Shown here one piece after another: positions 12,165-43,314 of a DNA stretch of 64,000 bases (position 1 is its first letter; each line of letters starts with the position of its first letter). The position numbers and the translations under genes are program-made. The stretch comes from Marsupella aquatica. Taxonomy: Eukaryota > Plantae > Marchantiophyta. The notes below the pieces were generated by a model. That model did no database searches and was not told where the DNA came from. It was given only the letters and a program-made list of their open reading frames with translations. The DNA is taken from NCBI GenBank assembly GCA_973895155.1, contig OZ316891.1, positions 25,419,899 to 25,483,898 on the forward strand, written 5' to 3'.

Positions 12165-13691
12165 TTAATCTGATCTCATGCCGACTATTATTTTGGAAGC
12201 GTCCAAAATTGGGCGCCTGTTAAATTGCTCTACTAGATATCTATCTCCATGCCTCTGAATCACAGGGTCTTCCCATAGAGTATGATTATAATCATAATCT
12301 CTAAAAATAGATTTAACTGACCAATCAGGATAATCTCTTCCATTGGCAATGACAAGTGGCTCACAAGAGTTTGCTAGCTTGCTAAGATACAGAATCAGCA
12401 AGTTAATCAGGAAACTGTCGTCGACCGACCCAAAATATTTGGGCGGAAATAATGATCCAACAACAGGATCTAAACAAGCATGAAATGCATCGGATTTGAT
12501 AAGCATTATATTTTGCTGCAAATACGCCTTTGTATAAATTCCAACCTTCTCAAAACACTTCAAAAATATCCGCTTATTTGATGTCACCCCATCGCATAAG
12601 TAACAATGAGACTGATCCCAAATATACTTAAATGAAGCCATTTCCATCGCAGTAAAAATAGATGCTAAAATCTGATCTAAAAGGTTCTTCCCAAGAGAGG
12701 ACCAGATCCCTACATCAAAATTCTCAAAACAGAATCTCAAGAATTCGTGAAGATGAGGCCTTGGAAAAACGTATATATTCCCAATCCAAATTCCAATTGA
12801 GACCGCCATCTGTCGGGAATGCGGTGCAGTGTAACAGAGTAGATGCTCCACGTCTAAAACTATGAGCCCATTTTCTCTACTGCAATGAATCTCCTGTAGA
12901 GAAACACAAGAAGATGCATGAGCCCGTATGGATGTACTCACGCAAATGGTCGCGTCACATATTACAGAGACAACATCCTCTACACTCTGGCCATTGATAA
13001 GTGACGTCTGTTGAAGTGCTTGATAAGAACTTGATCCGCATGTCTCTACACGTACAGATGCTCCCATATATCCTCGTTCAGATCCCAATCGATCTCGATG
13101 TAGATTTCTAATCGACCAGATGGGATAATCGAACTTGTTAGCGAACGCAAGACAAAGCCTTGAATTTGATAGCTTTTGTAAATATGGAATGAGATCATCC
13201 CTCAAAAAGACATCATCCAACGATCCTTGAAACAACTTAGCGAACAATAATCCGCATACAGCTGTCTGGCATGTATGGGAAGGACAGGCATCAATCTGGA
13301 TTATATTCTCTGGTCGATAATCTTGAAACATATCACGTAGTCTCTCGATAGATTTGAAGACAACAGTCTTATAATTTTTCTTCACATAACCAAGATTCCA
13401 GCAATGATCCCGCGTGAACACATATATTAGCTGCAACAGGTTGGTGCTCGACAACACTTCTGAAAGTATCTGATAAACCAGTTTATCGTCGAGAATAGAC
13501 CAGACCATCACATCAAAATGATCATAACAGAATTTTATAAGATCATGAAGATGCGGCCTTGGAACGACACACAGAGATCCGATACGAATTCCGGGTGTCA
13601 ACTTGAGTTGAGGAGTATATTTTGAAACGGAGCACAGGAAGTTTTCCAGTCCTAAAACTAGAAGTTGACGCGACCTGCTCCACTTAGACAC
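12165..13691 (-). CDS. Element A cargo gene, last exon: two FCP1/NIF (HAD) phosphatase-like domains, catalytic DxDxT degenerate
   Basis: Two copies of L(L/I)VL..E.(F/L)LC...PRPHLH..(I/L).FC...FDV.(V/I)WS...W/F.(R/Q).HC...FK/LK...NI..I. Confidence 0.8.
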   Translation of the reverse strand: MSKWSRSRQLLVLGLENFLCSVSKYTPQLKLTPGIRIGSLCVVPRPHLHDLIKFCYDHFDVMVWSILDDKLVYQILSEVLSSTNLLQLIYVFTRDHCWNLGYVKKNYKTVVFKSIERLRDMFQDYRPENIIQIDACPSHTCQTAVCGLLFAKLFQGSLDDVFLRDDLIPYLQKLSNSRLCLAFANKFDYPIWSIRNLHRDRLGSERGYMGASVRVETCGSSSYQALQQTSLINGQSVEDVVSVICDATICVSTSIRAHASSCVSLQEIHCSRENGLIVLDVEHLLCYTAPHSRQMAVSIGIWIGNIYVFPRPHLHEFLRFCFENFDVGIWSSLGKNLLDQILASIFTAMEMASFKYIWDQSHCYLCDGVTSNKRIFLKCFEKVGIYTKAYLQQNIMLIKSDAFHACLDPVVGSLFPPKYFGSVDDSFLINLLILYLSKLANSCEPLVIANGRDYPDWSVKSIFRDYDYNHTLWEDPVIQRHGDRYLVEQFNRRPILDASKIIVGMRSD

Positions 13692-13822
13692 CTGTAAATG
13701 AACAATTTGATTCTCATATTATGCAATTGCAAACAACCATGCAACCGGGCGCGTCACTCCCAAAATATAAAGTTCAATTTCAATCAATTTATAAATAATA
13801 ATTGATAATAAACAATAAACGT

Positions 13823-14730
13823 TTACTTATTGGACTTATCCCGGGCTTCTATAGCATGGTCTTTTTTGGCAGATAAGTATTTCATAAATTCGTCAAACTT
13901 TTCTAAATGGTCTTTATTCCCCTGATTACGAATGATCACATTTCTTCTCCACAGATTCGTCTTATCAATATAATCTTTCTCAAGATTTTCTTGAGAGAAC
14001 GTTGGAATCCCATATCCACTAAGGAGCTCGCAGAATGTCAACTTGTCAATTGACATGTCGCATAGATATGGATATAGTTTCTTTCTAAAAAATAGGTCAT
14101 CATCAAGCCCAGAATATGCATCGGGATACAGCGATGAATAGAAGTCATTAAGGCTCGTCTTATATGCAGCATCATTGATAAGAATGACATTCTCGATGTT
14201 GTAATCTTTAATATCGGCGACAATGTTGGAGAGACATTTGACAAATAAGGGGATGTCATTATTATTCTTCCCAATAAGTCGAGTTGATTCTTGTTCCCAT
14301 ATAAATTTAATACGTTTCAAAACTTCGGGTCGAAGTATCAGCCTTACACAAGATAGAATATTCTATTTGAACATGCACGACCAGATTGCAATGTCGTATA
14401 GATCTGCCACCTTCTCAAGAAATTCCATTAAATCAGGCCTTGGATAGATAACCTTGTGCATCTGTCTCACACCCCTTGACCAAATGGGCATCCCAGGGCT
14501 GATCTTCTCTGACCAGATAAGTACCCAATTCAGATAAAAAATTACAAGTCTCTTATGAACCGGTGACTTCTTTGTCGATGGATTAGGCGCCATCTGTACC
14601 TGTGATTTTTGTGCCGAAGGGTTTCAAGAACGTACTAGAATGGTCTGTTTGTTTCCCGCCTCCGGACGATCACCGGACTTCCAGACTAGTGCCTTTGATA
14701 CTCGATCAGGGGGTTTTGGGATAGGCTTTT
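13823..14730 (-). pseudogene. Element A cargo gene exon: third FCP1/NIF-like domain (in-frame stop)
   Basis: KRLVIFYLNWVL...YPRPDLMEFL...YDIAIWS...FIWEQ...FVKCL...ENVILINDAAYK (ORFs 14363-14593, 13823-14320). Confidence 0.75.
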
Positions 14731-14885
14731 GTAAAACATTAAGAAATGAAAATAAGTTTATAACACGAACGGTCGCGTGACTACAAAGAGAGACACTGAA
14801 ATGAAGTGTATTACCTATACAAGACGGTCGTTCAGTGCTGGAATTCCGCCGGAAATGTCAATCATAGCAGCACGGATCCCGGTAA

Positions 14886-15622
14886 CTAGGTTACTTGCGG
14901 ACGTCGGCTTGCGGACGTCGGCTTGCGGAAGTCCATGTCAAATAACGACAAAACTATCTCCCGACGGAATTTCTCAATTTGATCCGCGGCAAAATTAATT
15001 TTGTTTTCTTGACACAACCACTTGGCGTATCTCAAGATAAACACACCACAACTGTGGCCATCACTCTGGTGAGGAATATCATTCCGATATATCCGTTCCC
15101 AACCTGAGAGATCCAAGTTGACACCAGTTCTCCAGCCAATTTCATCGGCGTAGTACTTCCCAACAATATCTAGCACCCCAGGATTTTGTCGATTATGAAC
15201 TAGAGAATCTAGGTACTGGAGCCGTTTCTCCTTCGGATACACAACTACCAATGACCAATGTTCTTTCACAGCATTGTGTACTGGAAAGACCAGTTTGTCG
15301 TATTCACTGATTTTTAGCGGAAATTCCTTTGTCCAAGCTGCTCTCTCCTCATCAAAAATGGTAGGATCCATGGAGAGAAGCTCAAAATGGTGTGTTTGGA
15401 AGAATTTGACAAGGTCTGACTTTCCAACTCTATCGAGAATCAGTTCGAGAAACTCAAATAAGCGTTAATTATATCATCGGTGAGCAACTCGCGCGGTCTC
15501 AGACACATCATATGTTTCCTCTTGATCGAGTGTTGTAAGAACTTGGTCAATAGCTCTTCCATATCCTTAGAAGGATCAAGGCATTGATCTATTCGACTAG
15601 CCAAATTTTTAAAAAACTGCAA
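14886..15622 (-). pseudogene. Element A cargo gene exon: Ulp1/C48 SUMO-protease domain
   Basis: CLRPRELLTDDIINAYL ... PVHN..EHWSL ... YLDSL ... PHQSDGHSCGVF; His-Asp-Cys triad present; frameshift near 15440. Confidence 0.9.
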
Positions 15623-15878
15623 AAAACAAAGATTTCAGTACGCCTTCAAATAACGTACTGAGGTTGTAGCCTAAGGGTTCTACCTCAGAAAACAGAAACA
15701 ATAACAAATCAATAATAAAATAATGACGTTTATAATAGAAACTTTAAGCTTATAGCTTGCAAATGACCTTTGGATTGGGTGGATCTGGCCTTTTCGCAGT
15801 TGATCTCTTGGGTGCCTCAATCGCAACAACATCCTTCAGCCCTCCTCAAGACCGCAGTGATCGCTCCACCGGACCAGT

Positions 15879-17132
15879 TTACAAAGGTTGGAGCGATGAG
15901 GCGGGAAGACCTTCAAATGGTTGTGGCATTTGATTCAGATATTCCACAATCTGGGAATCCGATTCCAAAATATCCGGTGCCACAATTTCTGCGCAAGTGA
16001 CCTCTGCAATATATCGGGGTCGAGACCACAAACCCGGTTGCGTCAAGTCAGCTGTTAGTCTCTTAACGACTTGGGCCGAGTCTGGTGCCAAAGACGTTCC
16101 CAGGTCTTTCACTCGATTCTCGGAAAAGCGGACATTATTGATGATTGTCTCCATTCTGGATGCAGTGGCAGTCTTCTCTTCGGTAATCAAAAGACCCTTG
16201 CAATATTGCAAAGCAAGGACTGCCTGGACTCGGAGCTGCTCCGATGAATATTTATTCCAATCATCCAATGAGACCGTACTTAAGGGTGGATCGTTAAATT
16301 CAAACTCCGGGCGAAGAAAATAGTCTAATATTTTTTTCTTTACTGCAATTGAGGGTGAAGAAGGCTTCTTCAAATTCAGCTTTATTTTTGGTAGACGTTG
16401 TGCCTCAAGAATAAGCAAAAGATCCTTGGCCCTCTTGGCCTCCTTCCTCGCTGCCTCCAGTCTTGCGGCTTCTTCTCTCTCCAGTCTTGCAGAATCGACC
16501 TTTTCCGCCTCCAACTTCTCCGCCTCCACCCTCTTCGGTCTTGCGGTCTCGTCCGCCATCCTCTCGACCAGCAGCCTCTCAACCGCCACACTCTCCACCT
16601 TGGCCCTATTTGCCTCTGTCACTAAGAGGACTCTCGCAGCCTCCGTTTTCTCAGCCTGGGCTTTCTCAGCCTCCGCGTTCTCAGCCTCTGCTTTCTCGGC
16701 CTTTGCTTCCTCCGCCTCCGCTTCCTCTGCCTGGGCTTTCTCCGCCTCCACTTTCTCCGCCTCCGCTTTCTCAGCCTAGGCTTTCTCAGCCTCCGCTTTC
16801 TCCGCCTCCGCTTTCTCAGCCTGGGCTTTCTCAGCCTGGGCTTTCTCAGCCTGGGCTTTCTTTGCCTTGGCTTTCTTTGCCTTGGCTTTCTTTGCCTCGG
16901 CTTTCTCAGCCTTGGTTTTCTTAGCCTGGGTTTTCTCAGCCAGGGCTTTCTCAGCCAGGGCTTTCTCAGCCAGGGCTTTCTCCGCCTCGGTTTTCTCCGC
17001 CTGGGCTTTCTCAGCCTGGCTTTCTCCGCCTATGCTTTCTCAGCCTGGGCTTTCTCAGCCTCCACTTTCTCCTTCTTCTTTGTGGCAGTTGCTTTTCTAG
17101 CTGCCGCCTTTTTCTTCTTAGCCTCCTTCTTT
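15879..17132 (-). pseudogene. Element A cargo gene exon: AEKA(Q/E) coiled-coil repeats
   Basis: 15-bp tandem repeats GCTTTCTCAGCCTGG (~16640-17070) encoding AEKAQ/AEKAE; continues from 30638 once the Gypsy is removed. Confidence 0.75.
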
Positions 17133-18481
17133 TGTGGTATGGGTGTCCCTGCAATTTTTTCTGGAAACTTGTTTATTTTTAGCATATCACAAGATTTACT
17201 TACACTTTAGACACCTTCCGGCCAACATTTACTTGTTCTGGACACTTATAGAAATATTTGACATCTCCGGCTTTCCTGACGATTCCTAGTGTACTTTGCC
17301 CGACGCTGTGACCAGCGCCCGTTTCTTTTACTCAAGACGCTGCGGAAGCGTCCAACCTCCTCATGACGCTTTTGGCAGTGCCCGACCGCCACCAAGACTC
17401 TATGAGGATTTCGACCGACGCTGTGGAAAGCGTCAGCTTCAACACACGACGCTGTGAGCAGCGTCCGTTGGTTTTACTTAAGACGCTTCTAGCAGCGTCC
17501 AGATTCTCCCGACGCTTCTAGCAGCGTCCGCTCAACACTTAGTTTTTGAAGTAGATTACTAGTAAAGTAGTATTCTACCACCCTTGTTGAAGTACTTATG
17601 CTGTGCTTCTCCCTTGTTTAGTTTTAAGCTTGGAAAGGCACGACTGTTCTTACCTCCTCCATTTTAGGATTCCAGCACTTATAAGACAGAGTAGAATGCT
17701 CATTTGAAGTAGAGAGAAATAGAGTTAATACTGTATTCAGAATTGAGTCTTCTGAATAGTTTTCTCCTCCTTCCATTGTAACAAGGCATGCTGTGAGTGT
17801 TTTGTATGGAAGTAAAGCTATATTGATTGAAGTTAAGATTGAATTCAAGAGATTCCTGTGGTGATTGAATTCAGTTGCAGATTTCTGAAACTCGTATTGA
17901 ATTCACTGCTAGGCTTGCTTGCAGAGTCGGGATTCGCTAGCCAATTCAAGAATAGTTAATGATAAATGAGAAGTAAATTCTGATTCTCAGAGTAGTTAGT
18001 ACTGTTGCTTTGATTCTGGAATATGGTTTAGAGTTTGACTGAATTGCGTATCGCTGATGTCAAACCATGTTGACGGCATTTTAAATCATATCATTCATTT
18101 GCAATCAGAAAGCTTCTGCTTCATCAGATTGAGAATTCCATTATCATTAACCTTTGTGTTTTGAAGAGTGAGATGGATGAATTATGAGATAGATTTCATG
18201 TCTATACTGAGCCCAAATCCTTTCTGAAGGAGTGGCAGTAGCTTGTAGTCTCTAAATCCTTACTCATTTCTTCTCTAATTCATAAATCAGAAGTTCAGTT
18301 ACTTTGTTGTTTGTTTATTCGATTTTTTTTATTGAGAAGTGAAGTCAACATAGAGCTCAAGACTCTAAATCACTCGGAGTGATAAAAGTTATACAATTCA
18401 TTCTGAAATCTGTTCTTAAAGGGATCGAAACCCTGGTTTTAGGTGAGGAGAGTCACTTTTGATACTTAGCACTATACGACA
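17133..18481 (+). repeat. Gypsy 5' LTR (1349 bp)
   Basis: Near-identical to 29250-30637 apart from a 39-bp indel. Confidence 0.96.
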
Positions 18482-18487
18482 TCTTTT

Positions 18488-18505
18488 TGGCGCCGCTGCC
18501 GGGGA
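18488..18505 (+). promoter_or_regulatory. Primer-binding site (tRNA-Asp type, as in Athila)
   Basis: TGGCGCCGCTGCCGGGGA just after the 5' LTR. Confidence 0.85.
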
Positions 18506-19699
18506 ACGAATTTAAGATTGAATTGACGTACAGGCAGTGTATGCCAGAAGGAGCTAGACGGGAGAGGAATTCACGTTCTACTATAATTGTGAAGATGCGT
18601 CATCACTCTAGTTAAAAAGATGAAGAGCTTCCATTTCGAGGTGATGCCGTACTCTATCCAAAGCGCCCCGGAAGCTCTCTTAAGAGTATTGGAAAAATTT
18701 GTGGTGCCAAACTTAAGAGAAGAAACCGCCCTCCCACCAGAAAAGGCCTCACAGAGAGGAGCTGTTGCTCGTCAAGTTGCTTTGGAGATAGTCGAAGACA
18801 CCAAAGACACTTTGAGTGACAAGTGAAGTTATTCTAACGTTGCTCGGGACGTATGATTTGTAAAATTGTCCAACCATCCTGGTTCGTGTGACCGATGCCA
18901 CCTATCCGATCTTTGGGAACATTAAGAATTAGGAATTTGAGGAATCGTTATGTTAATTCTTGGGTTCTGAGCCTGAGAGGGAGGAATGGCATACATTGGT
19001 TAACTATCACCTGGTGGGAAGATGAAAGTTTGCATTTAGTAATATTAAGGCTGAATGGTAGGATCACACAGGAGTGATATTTAGTCATTTCCATTCGGGA
19101 GTTAGCGGAAAGAATCATGCACCAGGAATTGCGTAGAAGATTAGGAAGGAGTTAGACGTCTGATTAGTAGGATGGCCTAGTGTAGCGTACCATGTGGTAA
19201 AGAAATTTCAGGGTGAAGGAAGTCGGAGATTATGGGGAACGCCCGGTTCCAGTAATCGCCACCGTAAAGGAGATAAGGAAGGACGCCGCGAAGAGCGTCC
19301 AATGCGATTCGTCCCAGAAGATTCCGCAAGTCAGGACGCTTCGAGTAGCGTCCGATCCCAGTGGACGCTGTGAGCAGCGTCCGGTGGAATCTGTGACGAA
19401 CCAACGTGCGCGACGCTTCTGGTGTGCCTTTCCGCGTCTCAACCTGAAGGACGCACCAGAGAAAACGAGGTTTTAGAATCTCGGCTGGTCACTGAAGGGA
19501 AGTATTAGCTACGGGATAGCAAGGGGGAGGAATCATGCAAGGGATGTTGAACGACACTACGGGAAGTCACTTTGAGGAAGCAGGTTCATATCTCCCGGAG
19601 TGGGGTGATAACGTCGCACCTAAATGGTGACTCCTTGCATAAAGACTCCTGAGGAGCGGGTCTGGTGTCTCAAAATCACCCGTGCTTGGAGAATGAGGG

Positions 19700-22600
19700 A
19701 TGTCTGAGGGAGATCCACCGAATAAAAGAAAACCTACCAAGACCTCCAGTAATTCGGATGCTGCAAAATTAGTAGTGACCCCTCGCACATTGTTACCCGA
19801 ATTCCAGTCACCAGGAGCACCTGCACCGGGTAGTGTGTGGAAACAAGTGGGATCTATTCAAGAGGCAAGTGGCTCTTTGGAAAGGCCCACGTCGACCCGA
19901 CCCCTGTTTGTAAATCTTCGTTCAGGTCCAAAACTTATTGGTTCTCAAAAGACCAAGCTCCGCCAGCAGACAGTACGTTCGGTGAACCAAATTGACTCTG
20001 GTGTGGATAGTACCACTGAGAGGGCCTTATCTCATACCGAAGGAAGAAATTTGGGTTTGCCCGAGAATACAGTTGCAGAATCGCTGGCCCAAGATAATTC
20101 TGTCGATCTTTCACAATTGGATAATCCAGAACCACTGAGTGAAGCCGGTGGTTCGTCTTCTAGTGAGACAAGCAGCAGTTCAGGCTTGGGCAGCCCAAAC
20201 CCATTTGCTACCCGATCAGCTCTTCCTTTCGTTACCCTCCTAGCTCCAACCACGATGGCTCGAAATAATGTGAGGTACGACCGGTTCTTCGGTACTTCCA
20301 AGGAGGATGCAGAGGTGTATTTGAAAGAATTTGAAGCTGCAGCTGCATCCAATGGACAGAGTCAAGACGCTGAAAAAGCCAATCTGTTTGGTGGTCTAAT
20401 GAAAAAGGGTGCTCAGAAATGGTATGACCGTTTTCCGGACAAGCAGGATTGGGGGAAATTGAAGGCTGCTTTCTTGGCCAAATATAAAGAAGAAGGAGCA
20501 GCTGCGCGTGCCTTTGCCCGAATCTCACATCTGCACATGAAGAAACATGGGTCTGTGAGGAAATATGCCGACAAATTATTGGATTTGGTAGATCAATATA
20601 ATCCAGCTACCTCGAAATCTACTATCAAGGACTGGTTTATTAACGGTTTACCCTCCAGGATTGCTCGTTACGTGAGACGAGAAGGTGGCACCACTTTGGA
20701 AGAAGTACAAGAGGCAGCCCAGAAGTACGTAGACTCGGAGATTTCAGAGAGAAAACGAGTTAAGAAGGACCTGAAGAAAGACAAAAGAAAGAAGAAGAAA
20801 ATGTCCAGGTCTAAATCTGACTCGGAGACGGAATCAAGTGGAAGTAGCACTAGTAAGGAGGACGAGAGTACAAATTCGAGCACTAGTGATAGTTCAAGCT
20901 CAAGTTCCGACTCAGAATCCGTTGCTCCTAAAAAGAAGAAATCCTCTGTAAAAGGGAATAATAAAGTTCCCAACCAGAAGAAGATGGATCGCATGATGGA
21001 AGAACTCTCTGGCCAATTGTCCAAGTTGAATGTCAATATCGCCGCGGTAAAACCAGTACGAAGGTTGCCTGCTCCCATGAGAATGAACGTATGGTGCACC
21101 CGATGCAGTCAGCAGGGCCATTACCCGAACGAGTGCCCCACATTACGAACCCCGGTGAATTATGTAGATGGTCAAGAAGAGGCTGAGGAGTATGAGTACG
21201 ATCCCACGTATACCGTCCAAACAGCACCCCCTGGACAGTATTTCCCACCACCTCCTGCTTCCAGACCGACTTGGGGACCACCTAAGCCCACTTTCAATAA
21301 ACCAACGTCAAGACCACCCATGGGACCCCCGGGAGGATACCCACCACGAGGAATGCCGCGTCAAAAAGGGGCTTGTTGGAATTGTGGCCAACCTGATCAT
21401 TATTCACCCCAGTGCCCTTATCCCAAACAGGAGGTGGGGTATACACCTGTCTGTGGGAACTGTGGAAAAGAAGGACACTTACCGGTGGAATGCCCGAATC
21501 CGGCTAAGCCTAGGCTGATGGTTCGATTTGCTCAAGAGCCAGTTAAAGAAGCAAGTCGACCTGAAGCCAAGATTCGGATGGTTTATTCTGAAGAGATGGA
21601 GCAATGCAGCTTCATTCAACATATGGATGTAAATCGGGTGGAATTAAAGCCAGATTCACTTTTTCATCAACCAGTATCCGGGGTGGTGCCTGATGTCTTG
21701 GTAAGTCATTTAGTGAAACCTGAAGTAGTTGGTATGCCGAATGATCGAGTTCAGAATCGGGATAAAGTTCTGACTAATATTTACGCAACTACTCGTTCGA
21801 AGAAAAAGGAGACCAAGAAGCACGAGCATCAGAAGGTCGCGAAAGCTCCCAAGGATGAAGGGCGCAAGCCATGTAAGGAAGGCCTCGACAAAGAAGACGA
21901 CCCTGCTTATGACCGATATGACCCAAAATACTTCTTGCCCGACATCTCTTTGGAAGTGAAAGACCATCTGGAAGAGCTAGTTAAGGAGCAAGTGCAATCT
22001 CCTAACCCACCAGTAGTAGTCAAAGCTAAAGAGCCACTGAAAAATCCAGGTTATGATATTGTTGAAGATGTCAAGAATCATCCTGCACATATCACCATTG
22101 GGGAATTATTACAGGACAATCCGGTTTATAGGCGACAGCTGAGGAGCCTCCTTGCAGGAAAACGGAGGAAGAAGAAGTTACCTTCGGTGGATGTGCTACG
22201 AACAGAGTGGGAGGACAAAGGACCGATGGAAATTGAGGTTCAAATCCAGGGGTGTGTCATTCGGAGAGTTCCTGTGGATGGAGGAGCCAGCGTTAATCTG
22301 ATTACACAGTCAGCAGCATTTAATTTGGGTTTCACTAAGTTTGAGCCCACTCCCAAGATTTTGCGCATGGCGGATCAGTCTCGTGTGGTACCCATAGGGA
22401 AGCTGACCAGAGTAGAAACTTTGATTGCTGGTGTCCCTTTTCTGTTGGATTATGTGGTTATTAATCCGGAAATACCATCCAGCTTTCCTGTTTTGTTAGG
22501 CCGACCATGGTTGTATAAGGCTCAAGTTCAGGTTAATTGGCAATCTCAAGAGCTTTCATTTGGGAAGCCTAAGGTGACTGTTAGTTGGGTTCCGGAACCA

Positions 22601-22753: not shown

Positions 22754-25726
22754 CAATTAACTTCATCATCGGAAGTGGGCCCAGCAGCAGACGAACCTCC
22801 TAATACTGAGGCTAATAGGGATTTACACCATGATATGGGAGTGTCAGCTACCCTTGAGCCATTTGCACCAGAAGTATCCAAACTTGGACTTCAGCCGGCA
22901 AACCTCACGGATGGAATTGTGGATCCAAAAGCTTGTCAGAAAATCGAAATTGAGCCAGGCAAGTTTTTGAATATTGGTAAGCATATCGAAGGAGAGCTAC
23001 GGGAACAGTATATCAGTTTATTAACCCAGTATAAAGATGTCTTTGCCTGGAGTCATTCTGATTTAAAAGGTATCCATCCACATTTGGGCGAACATCGTAT
23101 TGACCTTATGGAAGGAGCAGTACCTGTCCGACAGAGACAGTACCGTTTGAATCCCAAATATTCCATCCTGGTTAAAGACGAGTTGGACAAGCTCACGACT
23201 GCTGGATTTATCTACCCGGTCTTGAGTAGTGAATGGGTCTCACCAATTGTCATTGTCCCCAAAAAGCCGGGACCCGATGGTAAAACGAAAATTCGCGTTT
23301 GTCAAGACTTCCGGAAGTTGAATGCTGCCACTCGGAAAGATCATTATCCTTTGCCATTTATTGATCTGGTACTTGATTCAGTGGCCTTGCATGAGTTATA
23401 CAGTTTTTTAGATGGGTACTCTGGTTATAACCAGGTGTCCATTCGGAAGGAGGATCGCGACAAGACTACGTTCACCACCGACTGGGGTACATATGCATTT
23501 ACCATGATGCCTTTTGGGCTGTGTAATGCCCCGGGTACTTTTCAGCGCATTATGATGATTATTTTTCAAGAATATTTGCGGCATTTCATGGAGATTTTTA
23601 TTGACGACTTTTGTGTTTACGGGTCAGCGGCTGAACACCTCGTCCATTTGGAGAAGACATTTCAGAAGTGTAGAGAGGCTCAGTTGTGTCTTCATCCAGA
23701 AAAGTGCTTTATTGGTATGAAGGAGGGAATTTTGTTAGGCCATGTTATTTCACAACGCGGCATTGAGGTTGATACAGAGAAGGTTAGAGTAATTATGGAG
23801 TTGCAACCACCGACCGATTTAAAGCAGCTTCGTGCTTTTCTGGGACATGTGGGGTATTATCGTCGGTTCATTTATAAACATGCTAATATTGCCTTACCCT
23901 TAACCCAACTGTTAAAAAGTGATGTGGAATATACATGGAATGAGGAGCGGCAGCAAGCATTCCAGTTGCTCAAGGATCGGTTAATCTCTGCACCTATTTT
24001 GTCACCCCCAGATTGGACTAAGAAGTTTCATGTCTTCATTGACTCTTCTGCGTTCTGCATTGGAGCTAATCTCAGTCAGAAGGATGTGGAAAACCGTGAC
24101 CATCCAATTTACTATGCCAGCCGCCAAATGAGTGCAGCCGAGAAAAACTACTCCGTCACTGAACGGGAAGCTTTGGCCATCGTCTTTGCGTGTAAGAAAT
24201 TTCGTCACTATTTGTTGGGGTATCAGGTTACTTTTCACACTGATCATAATTCCTTAAAATATTTGGTTAACCAAGTGGATCTCTCAGGACGAGTAGCCCG
24301 CTGGGTTTTACTACTCCAAGAATTTGATTATGAAGTTCATGTCCGACCTGGCAAACATCATGAGAATGCAGACTTCCTATCTCGGTTACCTGGTCCGGAG
24401 AATCAGCATAATCTCTCCGATGAATTTCCTGACGAGCATTTGTGGCACATTGAAGGGGAGTCTTCTCGATATTTTAATATTGTGCACATGCTGCTTCATG
24501 GAACGTTCCCTGAAGGCTTTAATGCGGAAGAACGAGCTGTCTTTGCTCATAAGGTGGGTCCCTATACCATTATTCGGGGCACTTTGTTTAAACAAGGTCC
24601 TGATCAACAATTGCGACGTTGTCTAGAGGATAGGGAACTTCCCCAAGTAATTGAAGCTTTACATTCAGGAGAAACCGGTGGGCATTATGCAGTGAATACC
24701 ACAGTTAAGAAAATTTTGGATGCTGGATACTGGTGGCCTACTATGCATCGAGATACTTACAATTTTATTAAGACCTGTGATCCCTGTCAAAGGATCGGGA
24801 AGCCCACTGCTAGTTCCAAATGGCCTCTTACGCCTATCCTTCCGTTGGCACCATTTGAGAAATGGGGGATTGATTTTATTGGCCCAATTTCTCCAGCAGC
24901 TCGGAAAAGCCGAAGCAAATATATTATTCTGGCCACTGATTATGCCACCAAATGGGTAGAGGCGAAAGCTACTCGCAAGAATGATGCTATAACCGCAGCT
25001 GCATTTCTCTTTGAGCACATTATCACCCGGTTTGGTTGTCCTTTGGAGTTGGTAAGCGATAGGGGTTTGCATTTTCTTAACTCAACTATTGAGTTAATCA
25101 CTGACCTTTATCTTATCAAGCATCGCAAAACTACTCCTTACAACCCCCGAGCTAATGGCTTAACCGAGAGAGCTAATGGCATTATGGGCAAGATTCTGAA
25201 TAAAATGGTAGAATCTCACAAGACAGATTGGGATGTGAAGCTCCATTCTGCATTATGGGCTTACCGCACCGCTGAGAAGATTACAACTCTTCACACCCCC
25301 TTCTATCTGACCTATGGCCTGAATAGTATTATTCCAATAGAATTTTCGTTACCAACGGAACGTATCTTGGTACCACACCGACTCTCTCCTTCAGATAGTC
25401 TCTCACATCGGTTTTCCAATATTGTTAAATTAGAAGAAGTTAGACTTTTAGCATTAGACCATACAGTCACCATTCAGAACCAGCGTAAACTTGCTTATGA
25501 TAAGAAGCTGCGCGTAGTGCAGTTAGATGTTGGTGATTTAGCATTAGTCTTTGATTCTCGTTATATGCTATTTCCTGGGAAACTTCATACTCATTGGATT
25601 GGTCCTTACCGAGTTACACACATCTGGGATAATGGTTCAGTTTCATTGACTACCTTAGATGGTCACCCACTTAACACTAGAATCAATGGGTTTAGGATTA
25701 AACGGTACTATGAGTCTTCCATTTAG
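22754..25726 (+). CDS. pol: Gypsy RT-RNase H-integrase, in frame with gag-PR across a single TGA
   Basis: DFRKLN, LDGYSGYNQ, MPFGLCNAP, FIDDF; RNase H DSSAF..ERE..TDH; integrase GH...C..CQ, WGIDF, SDRG, ER.N. Confidence 0.95.
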   Translation, partial: QLTSSSEVGPAADEPPNTEANRDLHHDMGVSATLEPFAPEVSKLGLQPANLTDGIVDPKACQKIEIEPGKFLNIGKHIEGELREQYISLLTQYKDVFAWSHSDLKGIHPHLGEHRIDLMEGAVPVRQRQYRLNPKYSILVKDELDKLTTAGFIYPVLSSEWVSPIVIVPKKPGPDGKTKIRVCQDFRKLNAATRKDHYPLPFIDLVLDSVALHELYSFLDGYSGYNQVSIRKEDRDKTTFTTDWGTYAFTMMPFGLCNAPGTFQRIMMIIFQEYLRHFMEIFIDDFCVYGSAAEHLVHLEKTFQKCREAQLCLHPEKCFIGMKEGILLGHVISQRGIEVDTEKVRVIMELQPPTDLKQLRAFLGHVGYYRRFIYKHANIALPLTQLLKSDVEYTWNEERQQAFQLLKDRLISAPILSPPDWTKKFHVFIDSSAFCIGANLSQKDVENRDHPIYYASRQMSAAEKNYSVTEREALAIVFACKKFRHYLLGYQVTFHTDHNSLKYLVNQVDLSGRVARWVLLLQEFDYEVHVRPGKHHENADFLSRLPGPENQHNLSDEFPDEHLWHIEGESSRYFNIVHMLLHGTFPEGFNAEERAVFAHKVGPYTIIRGTLFKQGPDQQLRRCLEDRELPQVIEALHSGETGGHYAVNTTVKKILDAGYWWPTMHRDTYNFIKTCDPCQRIGKPTASSKWPLTPILPLAPFEKWGIDFIGPISPAARKSRSKYIILATDYATKWVEAKATRKNDAITAAAFLFEHIITRFGCPLELVSDRGLHFLNSTIELITDLYLIKHRKTTPYNPRANGLTERANGIMGKILNKMVESHKTDWDVKLHSALWAYRTAEKITTLHTPFYLTYGLNSIIPIEFSLPTERILVPHRLSPSDSLSHRFSNIVKLEEVRLLALDHTVTIQNQRKLAYDKKLRVVQLDVGDLALVFDSRYMLFPGKLHTHWIGPYRVTHIWDNGSVSLTTLDGHPLNTRINGFRIKRYYESSI

Positions 25727-26109
25727 AATTCCACCTGGGACAGGTTGCAATTTAAGTGGAGGGCGGTAGTTATACTTAGTTAGAATTAGTGACCCTCCCT
25801 AGTAAGTATTCGGCATATTTTTTTAATTTTTTTTAGTTACTTTCAGTTTTTACATTGGACGCTGTGAAAAGCGTCCATTGTAACTCGACGCTGGGGAAGC
25901 GTCCACTTAGTTTACAAAGGACGTTGTGCAGAGGTCCGCTTTTGTATTAGTTCAGTTGCATGAGACGCTGTGAGCCGATGACTAGGCATCTTGTACAATG
26001 GCGGATTGCGACAGCTCAACGGGACGCTGAGGAGTAAGCAGTCGCGCTTCGCCCTAGTTCACTATGGAACACGATTCTCACTGAGCTTACGGAGCTAACA
26101 AGTCACGCG

Positions 26110-29100
26110 ATGGCGGAGACTGAGCTGACGACGCGACCAATACTCGCAGACATTCCATCGAATGCAATGCATAGGCGGCAGTTGAAGACGGCTCTGGCAA
26201 AAATGGGCTTGAAGAAGCTGCTTCAACTTCCTTGGAAGATTTGCGAATTCAGCCTTATCGATCAAGGTGTCTGGGACACTGAAGAAAGGATTGGTGTGCG
26301 CTCGCGTCCCAGTGTTTGGACTGAAGCGCTCATAGCGAAGGTCTATTCGACGCCGATGGAGGGCGAGGATTTACAGAGGGTTGATTGTGAGCCTCGGGTT
26401 TATGTAGAATCCTTCTTCGCTCCAGGATCTTTCAAGAGGCGGAATGGATGGCTAGCGGCGGACTGCTTAGATAATTCTCTGTAGCGTCTATTTCGATTTC
26501 TGGCACCAATTTTCTACCCAGAAAGCCAGACGCGCATCACTCTTTCGTTCGCTGCAACGGTGATCTGTTCATTAGAACAGACGCAGTCTATCAATTGGAC
26601 GAAGGTTTTGCACCGAGTAATTCATACTCAGGTCAAAAATTTTCGTAGCAGGCTGAAAACGGGGAAAATAAGGTGTACCTACTTGGCCCCTTATTTAGCT
26701 CACATTTACCATAAGTATGACTGTCTGCTTGTCTTGGAAAAAGATTTTTATCGCAACAATCAGAGAGCATCTACCGGTGAAGCAAATTATATGCCTGAAG
26801 TACGAGAAGTCCGAGCCAATTCCACAGTGGTAGAGCTATGTGCAATACTCGACTGTGAGGAACCTGAACTGGTGGGTGAAGTTCGGAAATTGAAAGAGAC
26901 AAGAGCATCAGCTGAAGGGAGTGACGATCCGATTCTTCACCAACCAAGAGAGGCTCAAGTTGCCGAAGATGTTCCTTCAACAATGCCAATAGGGTTGGAG
27001 CATTCTATGTCACCTCGACTCTCGTGTTCACCTTGTGCTGCCGAGCCTATTTATGATGTTGATCAGGATAATTCTGCTTCTCGGATGAATGTTGAAGATG
27101 AGGTGAGGGTGGATGAAGAAGGTTTTTCAGGGGAACCTCTTCAACATTCTACTGCTGAGGACGAGTATGATGGATTTACTTCTACCCCTGTTTTGGTTCC
27201 CATAGAGGCAAATAGTGATGCTTTGCAGGCTTTACAGGAGTATGATTCGTCCGACTCTCTTAGTTCTAGCCCAAATATAGGTGAAATCCCTCTGGTCCAG
27301 GAGTCAGAAATATTAAGCTCAGAAATTGTGAAGCTGGTTAAAGTTGATTCGGAGGATGCAATTGTGGATATAGACGAAGTAGGTGAACCAGTGACTTCTC
27401 CCCAATCTGTCGCAAGATACCCTGCCTGGTCTACACCTGGTTCACTCATATCGATTCCTTTGGATATAACTAAGGAATTAGATGAGGCAATAGCCGCGAT
27501 AGGAGCTCCTTCATTTCCGCCTGTAAAATGGGTTTCTCCTGAAGATGAGTTGATTGAAGGAGGCTCTGCTGGTTTTCCGAGTCGCAATCAGGTATCTGGT
27601 AATATGGGTATATCTGTACCCATATTGGTACCCGAGACACCCGCTTCGACAACCAGCTCAGCACCAGTTTCATTGGCTACAAACGAGGATAAAAACATTC
27701 GGGAGGAGTTTTCAGTGACGTATACTCGAAAATCTTGGAAACGGTTGCGCCATGCTATCAGTCGACAGATCTTTCCTGAAGCATCTTCCCAGGATTTTGA
27801 ACAGGGAGAAGCACCTATCGGAACAGACGAGCTACCCCTTCCTGTACTTTTGACAGATCGAACTAACCAGGAAGTCTCTTTACCTAGCGATAATTTTAAA
27901 GAAGAACTTCCTGTTTTAGTACCAATGCATCCCATTGCAGATCAACCAGCTACTGTTGCAAGAGAAGAATTTGAACCACTGGAGCCCGAACCTTCTGCTC
28001 CTTCGTCTCCTGTTACATTGCCAATTCGACCAGTTAAGGAGTCAGTGATTCCTTCCGCTATGCCAGATGTAATTTTCCGTTGGATAGGAGCACCAAGTGA
28101 TGGAGAAGAAGACGAAGACCCTCGCATTATCAGAGTACCTCCTCGACTTCGGCATACAGTGGATTTGCCACCCCGAAATCCTATCCCTAATTTGGCTTCA
28201 ATTCACAGGTGGGAGAAGAAACATTTTCGAGTAGCTTTTCGACATCTGGAGATGGAGAGCATTTTGCAGCAGCAGCAGATTTTGCCAATGACATCCCATC
28301 CGAGGATTCGTAGTTTGATTCGCACATATGAACCTGGGAAGGCGGTTCCTCCCATTGATAAGGACAGACGACATAAGTTTTCGGAGTTCGAAATTTGGTG
28401 TTGGGTGTATATGCTTCGACGAGCTCAAGCTCCATTTCCGCCCCTTGTGCCGGAAATTCCATGGCCCTATCCATACTATGTTTGGGTTTGTCCTGGTGGG
28501 TTTGCTATTCCAATTAAATATGAGAAGAAGCTTGTTAAGCTAAGGGAGCAGTTGATTACAAAACAATGTATGCTACCGGCTTCCCAAGGGTTCAAGTCGC
28601 TTAGGTGTTTAGCGTTCCTACCTATTATTCCTTCTTATCCGGATGTGATTATTCAAGGTGTTTTATCTAGGACACAGATTTGAAGGACACCATTTATGAG
28701 AGATATCAAACGGTGTTGTCATTTATATGTATATAAGCCGTTACTTTTGCAGCATCCTGCAATTGTTTCCTTCTTTCTCCTTCGAATTGATATTTATCTG
28801 CTCATGTGGGACATCAAAGCTACTATGGATTGTTGGAATTCTTTACCCCGTGCTTTCCAACATTCCTTTGAAGGCAAGATCAAACTGGGAGGACATGCTA
28901 TTCAACACTTTGTTATTGATCCAGGCTCTCGAATTAATTTCCTCTCCCACAGACTGTGCCAGCAATTTGTTCATCAAGAAGTACAACCGATATCTGCTCA
29001 GATATCAATCGATGGACGAATCATTAATCTTTGGGGAAGAGTTAAAGGAGTCCCAATACAGATCGGAGAAGAATTCCATGACCTCGATTTTTATATTCTG

Positions 29101-29172
29101 GATTCGGATATCTCCCAACTCCCGTCAATGATTTTGAGCACTACTTGGATTATTAAGCCAGAATATTATTAA
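26110..29172 (+). pseudogene. Gypsy extra 3' ORF (one frame, two internal stops) ending in a second retropepsin-like domain
   Basis: ORFs 26110-26484, 26560-28683 and 28696-29172 share one frame; the last has FVIDPGSRINFLS...LDFYIL...MILSTTWI. Confidence 0.65.
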
Positions 29173-29249
29173 TGAAGAACATGTCACTCGCTTCTGATTC
29201 AATTCGGTCATGTCTTGTGGGGACACGGCGAAATTTAAGTGGAGGGCTA

Positions 29250-30637
29250 TGTGGTATGGGTGTCCCTGCAATTTTTTCTGGAAACTTGTTTATTTTTAGC
29301 ATATCACAAGATTTACTTACACTTTAGACACCTTCCGGCCAACATTTACTTGTTCTGGACACTTATAGAAATATTTGACATCTCCGGCTTTCCTGACGAT
29401 TCCTAGTGTACTTTGCCCGACGCTGTGACCAGCGCCCGTTTCTTTTACTCAAGACGCTGCGGAAGCGTCCAACCTCCTCATGACGCTTTTGGCAGTGCCC
29501 GACCGCCACCAAGACTCTATGAGGATTTCGACCGACGCTGTGGAAAGCGTCAGCTTCAACACACGACGCTGTGAGCAGCGTCCACCCTAGTATTGACGCT
29601 GTGAGCAGTGTGAGCAGCGTCCGTTGGTTTTACTTAAGACGCTTCTAGCAGCGTCCAGATTCTCCCGACGCTTCTAGCAGCGTCCGCTCAACACTTAGTT
29701 TTTGAAGTAGATTACTAGTAAAGTAGTATTCTACCACCCTTGTTGAAGTACTTATGCTGTGCTTCTCCCTTGTTTAGTTTTAAGCTTGGAAAGGCACGAC
29801 TGTTCTTACCTCCTCCATTTTAGGATTCCAGCACTTATAAGACAGAGTAGAATGCTCATTTGAAGTAGAGAGAAATAGAGTTAATACTGTATTCAGAATT
29901 GAGTCTTCTGAATAGTTTTCTCCTCCTTCCATTGTAACAAGGCATGCTGTGAGTGTTTTGTATGGAAGTAAAGCTATATTGATTGAAGTTAAGATTGAAT
30001 TCAAGAGATTCCTGTGGTGATTGAATTCAGTTGCAGATTTCTGAAACTCGTATTGAATTCACTGCTAGGCTTGCTTGCAGAGTCGGGATTCGCTAGCCAA
30101 TTCAAGAATAGTTAATGATAAATGAGAAGTAAATTCTGATTCTCAGAGTAGTTAGTACTGTTGCTTTGATTCTGGAATATGGTTTAGAGTTTGACTGAAT
30201 TGCGTATCGCTGATGTCAAACCATGTTGACGGCATTTTAAATCATATCATTCATTTGCAATCAGAAAGCTTCTGCTTCATCAGATTGAGAATTCCATTAT
30301 CATTAACCTTTGTGTTTTGAAGAGTGAGATGGATGAATTATGAGATAGATTTCATGTCTATACTGAGCCCAAATCCTTTCTGAAGGAGTGGCAGTAGCTT
30401 GTAGTCTCTAAATCCTTACTCATTTCTTCTCTAATTCATAAATCAGAAGTTCAGTTACTTTGTTGTTTGTTTATTCGATTTTTTTTATTGAGAAGTGAAG
30501 TCAACATAGAGCTCAAGACTCTAAATCACTCGGAGTGATAAAAGTTATACAATTCATTCTGAAATCTGTTCTTAAAGGGATCGAAACCCTGGTTTTAGGT
30601 GAGGAGAGTCACTTTTGATACTTAGCACTATACGACA
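29250..30637 (+). repeat. Gypsy 3' LTR (1388 bp)
   Basis: Preceded by PPT-like AATTTAAGTGGAGGGC (also present at ~25749 after pol). Confidence 0.96.
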
Positions 30638-31135
30638 TCTTTTGAAGCTCCTCTTGCCGGGCCGCCTCTTGTTGGGCCGCCTCTTGTCGGGACGCCACCT
30701 CCTGCCGGACCGCCTCCTTCTTTTGAAGCTCCTCCTACCGGGCCTCCTCCAGCCGGGCCTCCTCCTGCCGGGCCTCCTCCTGCCGGGCCGCCTCCTTCTT
30801 TTGAAGCTCCTCTTGCCGGGACGCCTCCTGTCGGGCCTCCTTCTGCCGGGCCTCCTTCTGCCGGGCTGCCTCAAGTCGAGGCTCCTGTGTGGCCTCTTCA
30901 TCAGAGTCCTCAGCGTCCTCAGAACCCTCCATCTCCTCGCCCTCTTCATCAGCGTCCTCAGCGTCCTTCATCTCCTCTCCGTCACTCTCTTCTTCTCCTC
31001 TATTGTCGGAATCTCCGACGTCGTTTTGCTCTGGATCTTGGTCATTGACATCCCCTTCCGCGTCACCTTCCCCCTCACCATCCGCATCACCATTGCTCCC
31101 TGCATCCTCAACATTGAAGCCGCAGTCGACTTGAT
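30638..31135 (-). pseudogene. Element A cargo gene exon: acidic tract and EEARQ repeats
   Basis: Acceptor TTCAG at 31136; DQVDCGF...EEMKDAEDADEE...EAARQEEARQ; interrupted by the Gypsy. Confidence 0.75.
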
Positions 31136-31263
31136 CTGAATAAAATCAGATTATTTGATAAGAATGACTCACGCGCATATTCGCGTGAAAAGAAATGTTA
31201 AGAATGTCCACGCGCATGTTTGCGTGACGCAATAAAAAGCAAGAGGTTTCAAAAGTAACCTAC

Positions 31264-32989
31264 CTTGGATTGGCCCAGTAGGGTACTCCGTTGGTCGAAT
31301 GTACAATCAATCGGAATCTTCAAAGAGTGCATACTCTTGCAATAATTGATTACAAATATTATCAGGGATATGTTGTTCGTGGAGGACATCCAAAACATCA
31401 GCCCTGAGAGCAGTTACGGATGGACGGTACTTCATTAATTTATCTATAAATTTTTCTATACTAGCCCGTACTGGGTCAATCAATGACAGTGTTGTATCAA
31501 TTGTTGTTGTGGTGTGTTGCAATAAACAAGACAACTCCCTATGGGTTGCCACAGGGCAGTAATATTTTACATTGGATCCAGCATCCTGTAAAAAAAGCCT
31601 AAATTAGTTCACAATATTAATTGAGAATATAATAATCTAAATAATCTTAAAATTGAAACCCCAAAATATAAATCTCAAAACTTACCATTAAGCACTGAAT
31701 CAAGTTCGTTCCCTCACCGAAGCATATAGCACATTCCCCACATTGGATAAATTGACTAACAATACTTTCAAAGAATGGAAGTATCTTTTTTGGGGAAGGT
31801 GTTGTGAACTCGTCGCTCTCTTCAAAATTGGCTATCTTCTCAATCCGATATTTGGAGACCAATTGGAACTCGAGGGCTTGTGGATTGCCCATTGTGTTGA
31901 AGGCCAAGCTGTGAAAAGCGTAGGTTACAATAAGCTTCTTCTCCTTCGGCCGCTTCTGAATGTAATGGCTATCAATAGCAACGTAGTGTGTGTACTTCCC
32001 TAATTCCCGTTTGATTAAGTAAGACTCAACGGGAGAGGCTACAATAATAACCACATGGTGTGGTTTTGCCCCTATCTCGCTAGTAGCACGAAATAACCTC
32101 TCATAGAATGAGAAATTTGGCGGACGCAAATCTCCCATTGATGAGGGATCAAAATAAATCAAGCTCGCAAGGTTCTTGTCTTCACGTATGATACAGTTTG
32201 CAAACCCAACATTTTGTATATCCTACAGGGATCGCAATTTTAGCCTCTCACTGATGGGCCGCAGTAGTTGGTTTCCTTGACTATCAACTGATTTCTGTAT
32301 TCCTTCCACCAACTTGTAGAATATCGGGTCGATCTCTTTCAACAAATTATCATTACTAATATTTACATTTAAGCACTTCTTCAGATAACCACTCAACGCA
32401 TCTCTCAACTGCTTCAGCACCATCTTGTCGAGCTTAAAGCGATCAATCATTCCTTTGACCCGCAATTTCCGCGCTGAATCTGTCAGACTTTTCAGCTCCG
32501 TTCGGGTGGATGTATCCCCGTTGAGTTTACTCAATAATAAAATCTCAAACTCAACTTTTGTCTTCTTCTTTATACAGAATTGCTCCAAACTCATGCTGGT
32601 CGTTGACAACACTGGAGCCTCAGAGGACTTCCTCTCCTTCCCAGATTTCACTTTGATGCTTCGGTTTTTGAGTATAGACAGTCTTCCGCTCAACATATAT
32701 TCCGCTACCTTTCAAAGAACCAAGTCTGAGCACCCTTGACAAGAACGGAACGTCTTCTTCAGAAGATGATAAGCACATGGATATCCAAAATTTTGACGGC
32801 GTCCCTCTGTAAAATTCTGTTGTAAATTACAAGCTCTCCTGTCCTTGATAGTTCGTAGACCTCCATCCACTTCTTGAATGTTTCGTCCTCCATTGTAAAG
32901 AGAAATGGAGCCAATTCTCCAAATTTCATCATTTTGTTCTTCCCCATTTGAGCCCATGGGAAAACAAAACTTGTAGCTCTCATAAATAC
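31264..32989 (-). pseudogene. Element A cargo gene exons: helical region and degenerate N6/N4 DNA methyltransferase-like domain
   Basis: SLIYFDPSS (DPPY-like position) and PKKILPFFESIVSQFIQCGECAICFGEG (motif X-I-like); colinear with element B 58740-60210; GT-AG introns 31586-31685 and 31136-31263. Confidence 0.5.
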
Positions 32990-33082
32990 CTGAAAAACAA
33001 TGGAAACATGACAATTCTAAGATTGATGCGACCGTTCGCGTGACAAAAACGATAATGCGATCGAAGAGGGTTATTTACATAC

Positions 33083-34321
33083 CTTCCAATTTGGATGACG
33101 ACAATGTGATCCAGGCTGCCCAAATGAGTTCCAGATATTATGACACTATCGTACAATGGTGAGAAACTATCTTTCTTCCATTGATGTTTGATGATAGTGG
33201 TTCAGAGCTTTCGATAATCCTATCAAATGAACATTATTATCGTTGTTGAGCGTTGCCCAAAACATTACAGCTTCTACAGTACCGCAAGCGTCTTGTACAA
33301 CTTGGCTAACTTTGTCGTCCTCTTTCAGCAATTTGTACGCCATTATTGTGTGCTGGCCTTCGAGTATCCAAAAATGACTGGTCATAATGTCCTCCTCCTT
33401 TGGCGCCAAATCATAGGGCGCCCCATTATAGTCGGGATCTCTGTCAGCCTCCGACTGAACCCACTTCACAAGGACTAAAAAGCAGCATCACTTTTCGAAC
33501 TTTATAGCCGAATGAGAGAGGAGTGAATTCTTTAGCCTATCTGTGTAATCCTGATTCCACTCTCGGCACTTGATGTGGTCCGGTGCAAGATGACAACGTG
33601 ATGTATCAACAAAAAATGACTTGTTGTTAAATATATTCACAACACTATATTCTTTGAGGAAAGAATCAAACAGAGCCCCGACATTCGCTGAGGTAATTAC
33701 TTTCGGAAGATTCTCCGCCGAGTATACTTCAACCTTGGTCACTAGCGGGGCCTTTCCCAAGCAAAATCCCTGGTTGGAAGGAACTCTCTGGAACTCAAGT
33801 ATGTCAATAATGTATTGACAAATCAAATCTCCCGTTGATCCCTCTGGATCGGAAGGATATCCCACACTAGTAACCTTTTCCAAGGCGTGCCTTGCACCTA
33901 GAAGATCATCGATTCTGGGTTGATTGAAGGTTACATATTGCGTTTGATCCAAACAAATGCTTATTTTGTCCTCCTGCTGGTCATCGTTGACTAGCAGAAC
34001 CAATCCCTTTGTACACTCTTTAACTTTCATGTTCTTCTCAAAGAAACACCCAAGAATTTGTGATCTCTCCAAAACTATAGCTTTATCATTTTTTGCCACC
34101 ACAAGACGGACAGCCCCATTGCAAACGACTATTCCAAAATTGGATATCTCAGTCGATTCAAAGAGATGGATACTCTTTGTCTCCGTTGTTCTCTCTCTGA
34201 TTGACTTTCCTCGATATGCAAGTATGGATGTCTTCGCAGGAGTCATTTTTGTCTTGGATTTCTTACAAGAAGCAGCTATAGACGAGCCTCTTTTCCGCTT
34301 TGAAGTTCCGGTAGGATCCAT
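33083..34321 (-). pseudogene. Element A cargo gene exon 1: ParB/Srx-like domain
   Basis: FFVDTSRCHLAPDHIKCREWNQDYTDRLKNSL ... FWILEGQHTIMA; homologous to 57549-58244; intron 32990-33082. Confidence 0.65.
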
Positions 34322-34396
34322 TCTGAAATAGACAAATATTGAAAGTTAAACGTTTATTATAAAATACTAACACGCGCATGGTCGCGTCGTGCCAAA

Positions 34397-40622: not shown

Positions 40623-40662
40623 ACTGAAAAAAATGGATTAAAACCAAACTCATGCAAATTTT

Positions 40663-43275: not shown

Positions 43276-43314
43276 CAAGAGTTATGCAAATGTTTGAAAG
43301 GTTTTAAGTCTAAC

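Follow-up and report, generated by a model that had tools for sequence, protein, structure and literature searches.

A decayed liverwort transposon gene with ParB-like, Ulp1 protease and pseudo-phosphatase domains, and the palindromes that accompany it

Accessory genes for ParB-type proteins have been described in DNA transposons of algae, where Sola1-1_Ec32 of Ectocarpus carries a ParB plus N4C/N6A methyltransferase gene opposite its Sola transposase (PMC12477816) and Plavaka elements of Bostrychia encode the ParB accessory proteins PAG2 and PAG3 with inverted repeats adjacent to them (bioRxiv 10.1101/2025.02.11.637652). Binding of these algal proteins to their own elements is so far a proposal, and the few transposons for which sequence-specific anti-silencing has been demonstrated are all from flowering plants (VANC; TnpA in a 2026 preprint). 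Motifs to which VANC binds lie in introns (PMC5735166), and fusions of VANC to Ulp1 have been described (PMC13317346); VANC and KAONASHI (KIU) are anti-silencing proteins of the VANDAL group of Mutator-like elements (MULEs; for further related literature, see PMC4738411 and bioRxiv 2026.08.24.746577). Here, we analyze a 64,000-nucleotide stretch of the liverwort Marsupella aquatica (contig OZ316891.1, positions 25,419,899 to 25,483,898; "the window") that is made up of nested plant transposons with uneven CpG loss across its length. It contains a probable giant minus-strand gene of a putative DNA transposon that we call element A, and a second transposon, element B, whose ParB-like gene is a diverged relative.

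The domains of the element A gene follow the order F-box-like, ParB-like, helical, methyltransferase-like, acidic, coiled-coil-like repeats, Ulp1, and three folds of the HAD family. With a probability of roughly one half (0.52), we read this locus as a decayed member of a multicopy family of plant DNA-transposon accessory genes, one that encoded a single protein of ~2,820 residues, likely a self-targeting anti-silencing factor. The ParB-like/helical module would bind a 20-bp palindrome found in the element's own introns and at its end, while the methyltransferase and HAD folds, having lost catalysis, would serve as DNA- or protein-binding scaffolds. By analogy to what has been proposed for VANC/KAONASHI, the intact Ulp1 domain would then strip SUMO from silencing proteins at the palindromes, and this local deSUMOylation could allow transcription and transposition of the family to continue.

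The gene model (Table 1) departs in several respects from an initial annotation of the same DNA, made from the sequence alone, which had placed one spliced gene of about 2500 residues at 12165-34321. Its Gypsy long terminal repeat (LTR) retrotransposon stands: the target-site duplication (TSD) TCTTT flanks the insert on both sides, and its removal rejoins the frame within an ELQKKEA repeat of the element A gene. The two LTRs have no mismatches over 1,349 aligned bases, so the insertion is recent. The three introns whose phases had been reported as checked (introns 1 to 3) are T-rich with canonical sites and in frame, and the three that had been called probable could be refined to 15767-15617, 14814-14729, and 13826-13692, though with a weak donor at the first and a phase mismatch at the last. 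A figure of 8.6 kb of coding sequence holds only as the span without the Gypsy but with introns (8,647 nt), since about 7,950 nt within 12165-34321 are coding. The proposed limit at 34321 probably does not hold: an in-frame intron links this ATG to an F-box-like exon that is split by the 28-kb terminal inverted repeat (TIR) element B, and the gene probably extends past 62750 and starts near 63066, giving ~2,820 aa. When the rejoined F-box-like exon is compared to a paralog at 63122-63628, the alignment crosses the insertion point with a score of 135 (maximum 58 over 500 shuffles). The 10 exon segments amount to about 2,820 codons in frame, given an extra base or use of acceptor 13675 at the last intron; a possible additional in-frame intron at 12965-12894, also palindrome-bearing, lies in the last exon. 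The links across introns 1 to 3, the Gypsy site, and the junction from Ulp1 to the first HAD repeat (HAD1) are strong. Most junctions of a single gene are supported; two links remain unproven.

Table 1. Coordinates of features in the window (position 1 is its first letter)
Feature	Position	Strand	Remarks
Element A, probable first coding exon, 5' half, F-box-like domain	62754..63066	-	ATG 63066 assumed; in frame across empty site
Element A, F-box-like exon, 3' half	34401..34596	-	severed by TIR element B; aligns with upstream paralog
Element A, intron 0	34323..34400	-	phase 2, in frame, palindrome-bearing; leads into ATG 34321
Element A, exon: unassigned N-terminal region and ParB-like domain (EGQHT)	33083..34322	-	3 stops; ParBc_2; alignment to element B and P0112
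Element A, intron 1	32990..33082	-	phase 0, canonical, palindrome-bearing; position matches element B gene intron
Element A, exon: helical domain and most of methyltransferase-like region	31686..32989	-	frameshift ~32781, 2 stops
Element A, intron 2	31586..31685	-	phase 0, canonical
Element A, exon: end of methyltransferase-like region and helical tail	31264..31585	-	1 stop
Element A, intron 3	31136..31263	-	phase 1, canonical
Element A, exon part: acidic tract and 5-residue EARQE repeats	30638..31135	-	
Element A, exon part: AEKAQ repeats (likely coiled coil) and unassigned 140-aa domain	15768..17127	-	4 stops, 1 frameshift
Element A, probable intron	15617..15767	-	phase 0, weak donor GTCATT, palindrome absent; weakest link
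Element A, exon: Ulp1/SENP-like C48 protease domain	14815..15616	-	catalytic residues intact
Element A, intron	14729..14814	-	phase 0, palindrome-bearing; both splice sites mutated in present copy
Element A, exon: linker and pseudo-HAD repeat 1	13827..14728	-	2 stops
Element A, probable intron	13692..13826	-	palindrome-bearing; one base out of phase unless acceptor 13675 used
Element A, last exon: pseudo-HAD repeats 2 and 3	12165..13691	-	508 open codons
A palindrome copy near probable left end of element A	11977..11996		
Gypsy LTR retrotransposon	17133..30637	+	TSD TCTTT both sides
Gypsy look-alike palindrome sites	17302-17530, 19281-19413, 25857, 29419-29685		
Nested TIR element B (Sola-like)	34597..62749		TIRs, TSD CCTG; holds Copia, LINE, 3.36-kb insert
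Element B gene: ParB-like, helical, beta-class methyltransferase fold, acidic, C-terminal domain	57504..61100	+	intron 58245-58739; broken
Element B, separate pseudo-HAD open reading frame (DLNKIL)	61320..62377	+	frameshifted
Element B, 27-bp arrays of B palindrome	40641..43273		between B transposase-like gene and ParB gene

The present copy of element A is dead. The coding segments, which had been described as separated only by introns, also contain 14 in-frame stops, are frameshifted near 32781, 17015, and 15449, and carry a duplication of 14 nt (14894-14921). Other genomic copies, whose comparison the initial annotation had suggested, were studied as contigs of four runs from two studies over 14600-15900 and 30500-34790. 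Contigs of all four runs cover both stretches, mostly at 90-99% identity, and their depths suggest that the element A gene belongs to a multicopy family, depth not being equal to copy number. In all four runs, TAG 14817 reads CAG, TGA 15848 reads CGA, the broken acceptor at 14729 reads AG opposite an equally canonical donor, and the base absent at 15449 is present. The base missing at 32781 is likewise found in all four runs, where it makes up roughly half the depth. The 14-nt duplication is absent from other copies as well (loose contig ends, two runs). Because these copies lack the visible lesions and restore both splice sites between Ulp1 and HAD, the whole chain was probably one spliced multidomain gene. 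C-to-T-type changes account for 48 of 65 classed differences, and CG or CHG sites for 39 of those 48 (classed were 27 of 33 rows in 14600-15900 and 38 of 40 in 30500-34790, the others having been seen mainly in minor contigs or outside the gene). The simplest reading is methylation-driven decay of the present copy.

The DNA targeting that had been proposed for the element A protein receives independent support from element-specific palindromes: introns and other non-coding stretches of each of the two elements hold a palindrome of its own, a new observation. The A palindrome (TSACGC-N8-GCGTSA, 20 bp) has 26 matches in the window where 3.4 are expected, and it lies in 5 of the 7 element A introns (mean 0.04, maximum 2 in 1,000 shuffles). 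Of 10 matches to a stricter version, 8 are in element A and 2 in the Gypsy, and other copies of the gene are nearer the consensus at 33027 and 14765. An unrelated 21-bp palindrome has all of its 43 matches inside element B, including five copies in the intron homologous to element A intron 1. The LTRs and internal non-coding DNA of the Gypsy hold 14 GACGCT-N6-AGCGTC sites, which have the same half-site core and spacing as the A palindrome. A reading of the A palindromes as RNA hairpins was rejected, with only one of eight A copies folding better than all shuffles; they are more likely double-stranded DNA sites.

The protease and phosphatase-like parts of the element A protein are its best-defined domains. 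The C48 domain (Pfam E 3e-16; SENP2 E 1e-15) aligns its His, Asp, Gln, and Cys with those of SENP2, so that both the triad, as had been claimed, and the oxyanion Gln are intact; because the triad is intact, deSUMOylation by this domain is plausible. Three NIF/HAD repeats (Pfam E 3.7e-7, 2.8e-11, and 2e-13) read YLNWVL, GLENFL, and DVEHLL at motif I, where DxDxT or DxDx(T/V) is the form in FCP1/SCP CTD phosphatases. The loss of DxDxT from all three is thereby borne out, and these differences are not explicable by C-to-T decay. Phospho-CTD-type binding is not supported: TIGR02245 (HAD-IIID) ranks first for all three repeats, above FCP1 though all far below cut-off, and UBLCP1 is the sole phosphatase match in PDB (E 0.0011), by which the repeats appear closer to UBLCP1 than to FCP1.

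Toward the N-terminus, domain signals are fainter. The F-box-like exon matches Pfam F-box at E 0.005, below cut-off, and the ParB-like label, weak by Pfam (ParBc_2, E 0.021), is carried by homology to element B: global alignment of this part to element B and to the B-type protein P0112 gives z 4.2-4.5, with 0 of 300 shuffles as high. In all four ParB-like sequences seen, the Arg of the GxxR motif is T or S. The helical part scores 16.1 bits against the family profile (shuffle maximum 2.1), and the genes of elements A and B share an intron position, with P0024 reading across the matching junction. For the methyltransferase-like region, DPSS and FGEG (ICFGEG) stand at motif positions; the methyltransferase part alone gives z 1.9, and the whole region z 5.3 against element B and 1.7 against P0112. 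This label, which collinearity with element B supports and no independent detection confirmed, rests on position and motif register, and the domain was probably inactive. An AlphaFold model of the exon (predicted local distance difference test, pLDDT, 65) has a disordered middle and found no Foldseek match; it rested on the family alignment, which biases it toward the expected fold. Pairwise BLASTP of element A against element B was blank, as was hhalign, and word-based homolog searches with the N-terminal/ParB region (longer proteins) and the methyltransferase-like region gave no match. Element A is far diverged from the B-type family and, within the length limits of the word-based searches, without close annotated relative.

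We call element B Sola-like because of its 4-bp TSD CCTG and a minus-strand transposase-like open reading frame (ORF) matching DUF7869 (E 0.0016, 38131-38985), a TSD of 4 bp being a Sola feature. Its methyltransferase part (Pfam N6_N4_Mtase, E 1.7e-5) led to P0002 and, with E of 0.001 or less, to 110 proteins. The resulting family profile matches M.RsrI (E 2.4e-9), and a model of P0112 matches the folds of PvuII, CcrM, RsrI, and rotifer N4CMT, its ParB part being of low confidence. Thirty homologs were looked up and include six Riccia sorocarpa and two Calypogeia fissa models; one Riccia gene model (P0087) has a HAD domain joined onto its methyltransferase-like region, the only such fusion among 124 fetched proteins. 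The catalytic motif of active beta-class amino-methyltransferases is (D/N/S)PP(Y/F). It reads TSPPY in MpDN4MT1 (bioRxiv 2021.02.12.428880), and PPY occurs in none of the 39 B-type rows that cover the site, which are of a D-F/L-S/T-R type instead. S-adenosylmethionine motif I (DFFSGG) is retained (D in 31 of 35, G in 32 of 35) and is one residue shorter than in RsrI. From the replaced catalytic motif, we infer that the B-type methyltransferase is a pseudo-enzyme. A small beta-rich C-terminal domain of the family (P0112 938-984; window 60804-61097) is conserved and confidently folded with no Pfam match. In the Atlas, the ParB-like domain of element B (57504-58031) neighbors a DUF3723 cluster (0.94; 14% of members) and a ParB_N cluster (0.89; a lead only). 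DUF3723 is a Starship auxiliary gene (PMC13486527), which hints that Starships also carry a ParB-like protein; our literature search found DUF3723 and ParB together in no paper. A tblastn search of phages with P0112 gave no match and PHROGs matched the methyltransferase end only, so that these searches lend no support to a phage donor.

Several observations count against a single self-targeting protein. The links from coiled coil to Ulp1 and from HAD1 to HAD2 are the unproven ones: the former needs the weak donor GTCATT, other copies keep TAA 15752 just within this putative intron, and there is a Met near 15560, so that Ulp1 could start a second gene; the latter misses the frame when its best acceptor is used. 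No PDB match was found for the Ulp1 N-terminal piece, and a domain onset upstream of this Met is unsupported. Reversion was seen for only 2 of the 14 stops, the other 12 being not displayed or not covered (in 30500-34790, 40 of 358 substitution rows were displayed, none at a stop site; stops 15881 and 14626 lie within 30 nt of stretch ends and were unlisted; 17032, 16778, 14365, and junction 13826 fall outside both stretches). None of the 124 fetched B-type proteins has Ulp1, the family C-terminal motif, found in 21 of them, always lies at most 21 residues from the protein end, and the HAD ORF of element B is separate from its ParB-methyltransferase gene. The weak donor, TAA 15752, the Met near 15560, and the phase mismatch at 13826 would suit two or three tightly packed accessory genes (F-box/ParB/methyltransferase-like/coiled coil; Ulp1 and HAD1; HAD2-3) whose separate proteins act jointly, as would the end of B-type proteins before HAD. 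We consider such an arrangement rather unlikely: only ~190 nt separate TAA 15752 from the next Met, and an in-frame acceptor of canonical form lies among them; other copies have canonical splice sites from Ulp1 to HAD1; and the HAD2-3 exon lacks a start of its own, with no Met ahead of pseudo-HAD repeat 2.

The proposed role has weak points of its own. For the element A methyltransferase region, the score against the family profile falls short of significance (21 of 300 shuffles as high) and no fold or Atlas match was found, the A palindrome pattern was derived from the very introns in which it was counted, and a host factor could explain why GACGC-N8-GCGTC recurs in an unrelated Gypsy. One gene might instead encode a TnpA-like transposition helper that bridges ends or chooses targets, the palindromes serving this function or a host transcription factor rather than anti-silencing. 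One palindrome at the probable element end, B palindrome arrays adjoining the transposase gene, and the half-site and spacing common to the Gypsy would all fit, and the 8+4+8 layout of the A palindrome may resemble that of plant as-1/ocs sites. A helper of this kind is nevertheless distinctly less probable to us, as the palindromes of elements A and B differ, Ulp1 and the acidic tracts point to chromatin, and most A sites are internal and intronic like VANC targets (PMC5735166). Least probable, and indeed very doubtful, is a capture of host fragments by which the extra domains would be Pack-type cargo without selected function: MULE and CACTA elements often capture Ulp1 (PMC2528002, PMC13317346) and another insert in the window carries an ABC-transporter fragment, but long open frames with in-frame introns persist in the family, the Ulp1 triad is intact, and HAD domains accompany element A, element B, and the Riccia model alike. 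A bolder scenario we offer only tentatively. Liverwort DNA transposons would use parS/ParB-type self-recognition, with the ParB-derived module of each family reading a family-specific palindrome in its introns, and element A would have extended its module into a single ~2,820-residue protein by adding a SUMO protease, F-box-like domains, and three pseudo-phosphatases; such an anti-silencing machine would be convergent on VANC-Ulp1 from prokaryotic parts, and the young Gypsy with its look-alike palindrome may hitch-hike on that protection.

The surroundings of element A record further insertions. The observed/expected CpG ratio drops from about 0.8 to 0.16 near 11960, so the left end of element A is probably there, inside an older CACTA-like element; CACTA-like genes left of 11950 have ratios of 0.16-0.35 compared to 0.5-1.1 and look like an older element that element A interrupted. 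Window positions 1-11950 hold two old, strongly CpG-depleted CACTA-like remnants (DUF4218, DUF4216, Transposase_24), and a miniature inverted-repeat transposable element at 5700-6042 (TSD ATAC), whose TIR family is common to element B, breaks an old TnpA-like frame. That element A itself is a CACTA was considered and dropped, since no CACTA terminus was found near its border and the flanking CACTA-like genes are far more CpG-depleted. The right end and transposase of element A lie beyond the window, which contains no MULE transposase. Upstream of the gene, a second F-box-like unit (63122-63628, minus strand) and an open frame reaching the window edge (63754-63999, minus strand) are possibly further exons of it. 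A 3.36-kb insert with terminal direct repeats of 130-143 bp is present twice in opposite orientation (7806-11172 and 34787-38139, 48 mismatches), with an ABC-transporter fragment at 8459-9037 that is presumably STR2-like. These inverted copies were dropped as candidate TIRs of element A, as one lies inside element B and the other inside the old CACTA. Element B also contains a Copia (140-bp LTRs) with a nested L1-type long interspersed nuclear element (LINE) at 43470-56650. In the Gypsy, pol is followed by an extra long ORF (26038-29172, plus strand; 148+732+162 codons, stop-split), for which Pfam gave no match except a weak aspartyl-protease at its end.

What had been noticed in this DNA is thus mostly real, although the copy is dead and the core ParB plus methyltransferase module was already known; the initial annotation missed both, as well as the extension past 62750. 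In the literature searched, we found neither a ParB+Ulp1+HAD fusion nor this family in liverworts; Supplemental Table 6 of the Bostrychia work or the Ectocarpus TE library might list fusions. The two diverged family members in this window, each accompanied by a different palindrome, lend themselves readily to a specificity-swap binding test, and the fusion to an intact SUMO protease bears on the question of why transposons keep capturing Ulp1.

As far as they are described in the sources cited above, Ectocarpus Sola1-1 and Bostrychia PAG2/PAG3 resemble the element B gene in that a ParB-like domain precedes a beta-class amino-methyltransferase fold in a large DNA transposon, and the element B gene further shares with these systems its strand opposite the transposase, a length of ~1,000 aa, and adjoining inverted-repeat arrays. 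Unlike these algal systems, the host is a land plant, the catalytic motif is replaced throughout the B-type family examined, and in element A the module would be part of a chain of ~2,820 aa that also includes F-box-like, Ulp1, and three HAD folds; the term "Ulp1" does not occur in the main text of the Ectocarpus paper (PMC12477816). At the level of single domains, the element A C48 domain belongs with SENP1, SENP2, and Ulp1 (PF02902), its catalytic residues aligning with those of SENP2, but it is transposon-borne and internal to a giant protein, while its HAD folds belong with FCP1, SCP, and UBLCP1 (Pfam NIF) yet form three tandem copies without DxDxT. Active beta-class methyltransferases (M.RsrI, M.PvuII, MpDN4MT1) have a PPY-type motif where element A reads DPSS. 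With VANC/KAONASHI, element A shares the status of a transposon accessory gene, peptide repeats, a Ulp1 domain, and family-specific motifs in introns and ends. This likeness is one of layout and motifs, with no suggestion of VANC homology, and DNA binding in element A would come from its ParB-like module and palindromic sites instead.

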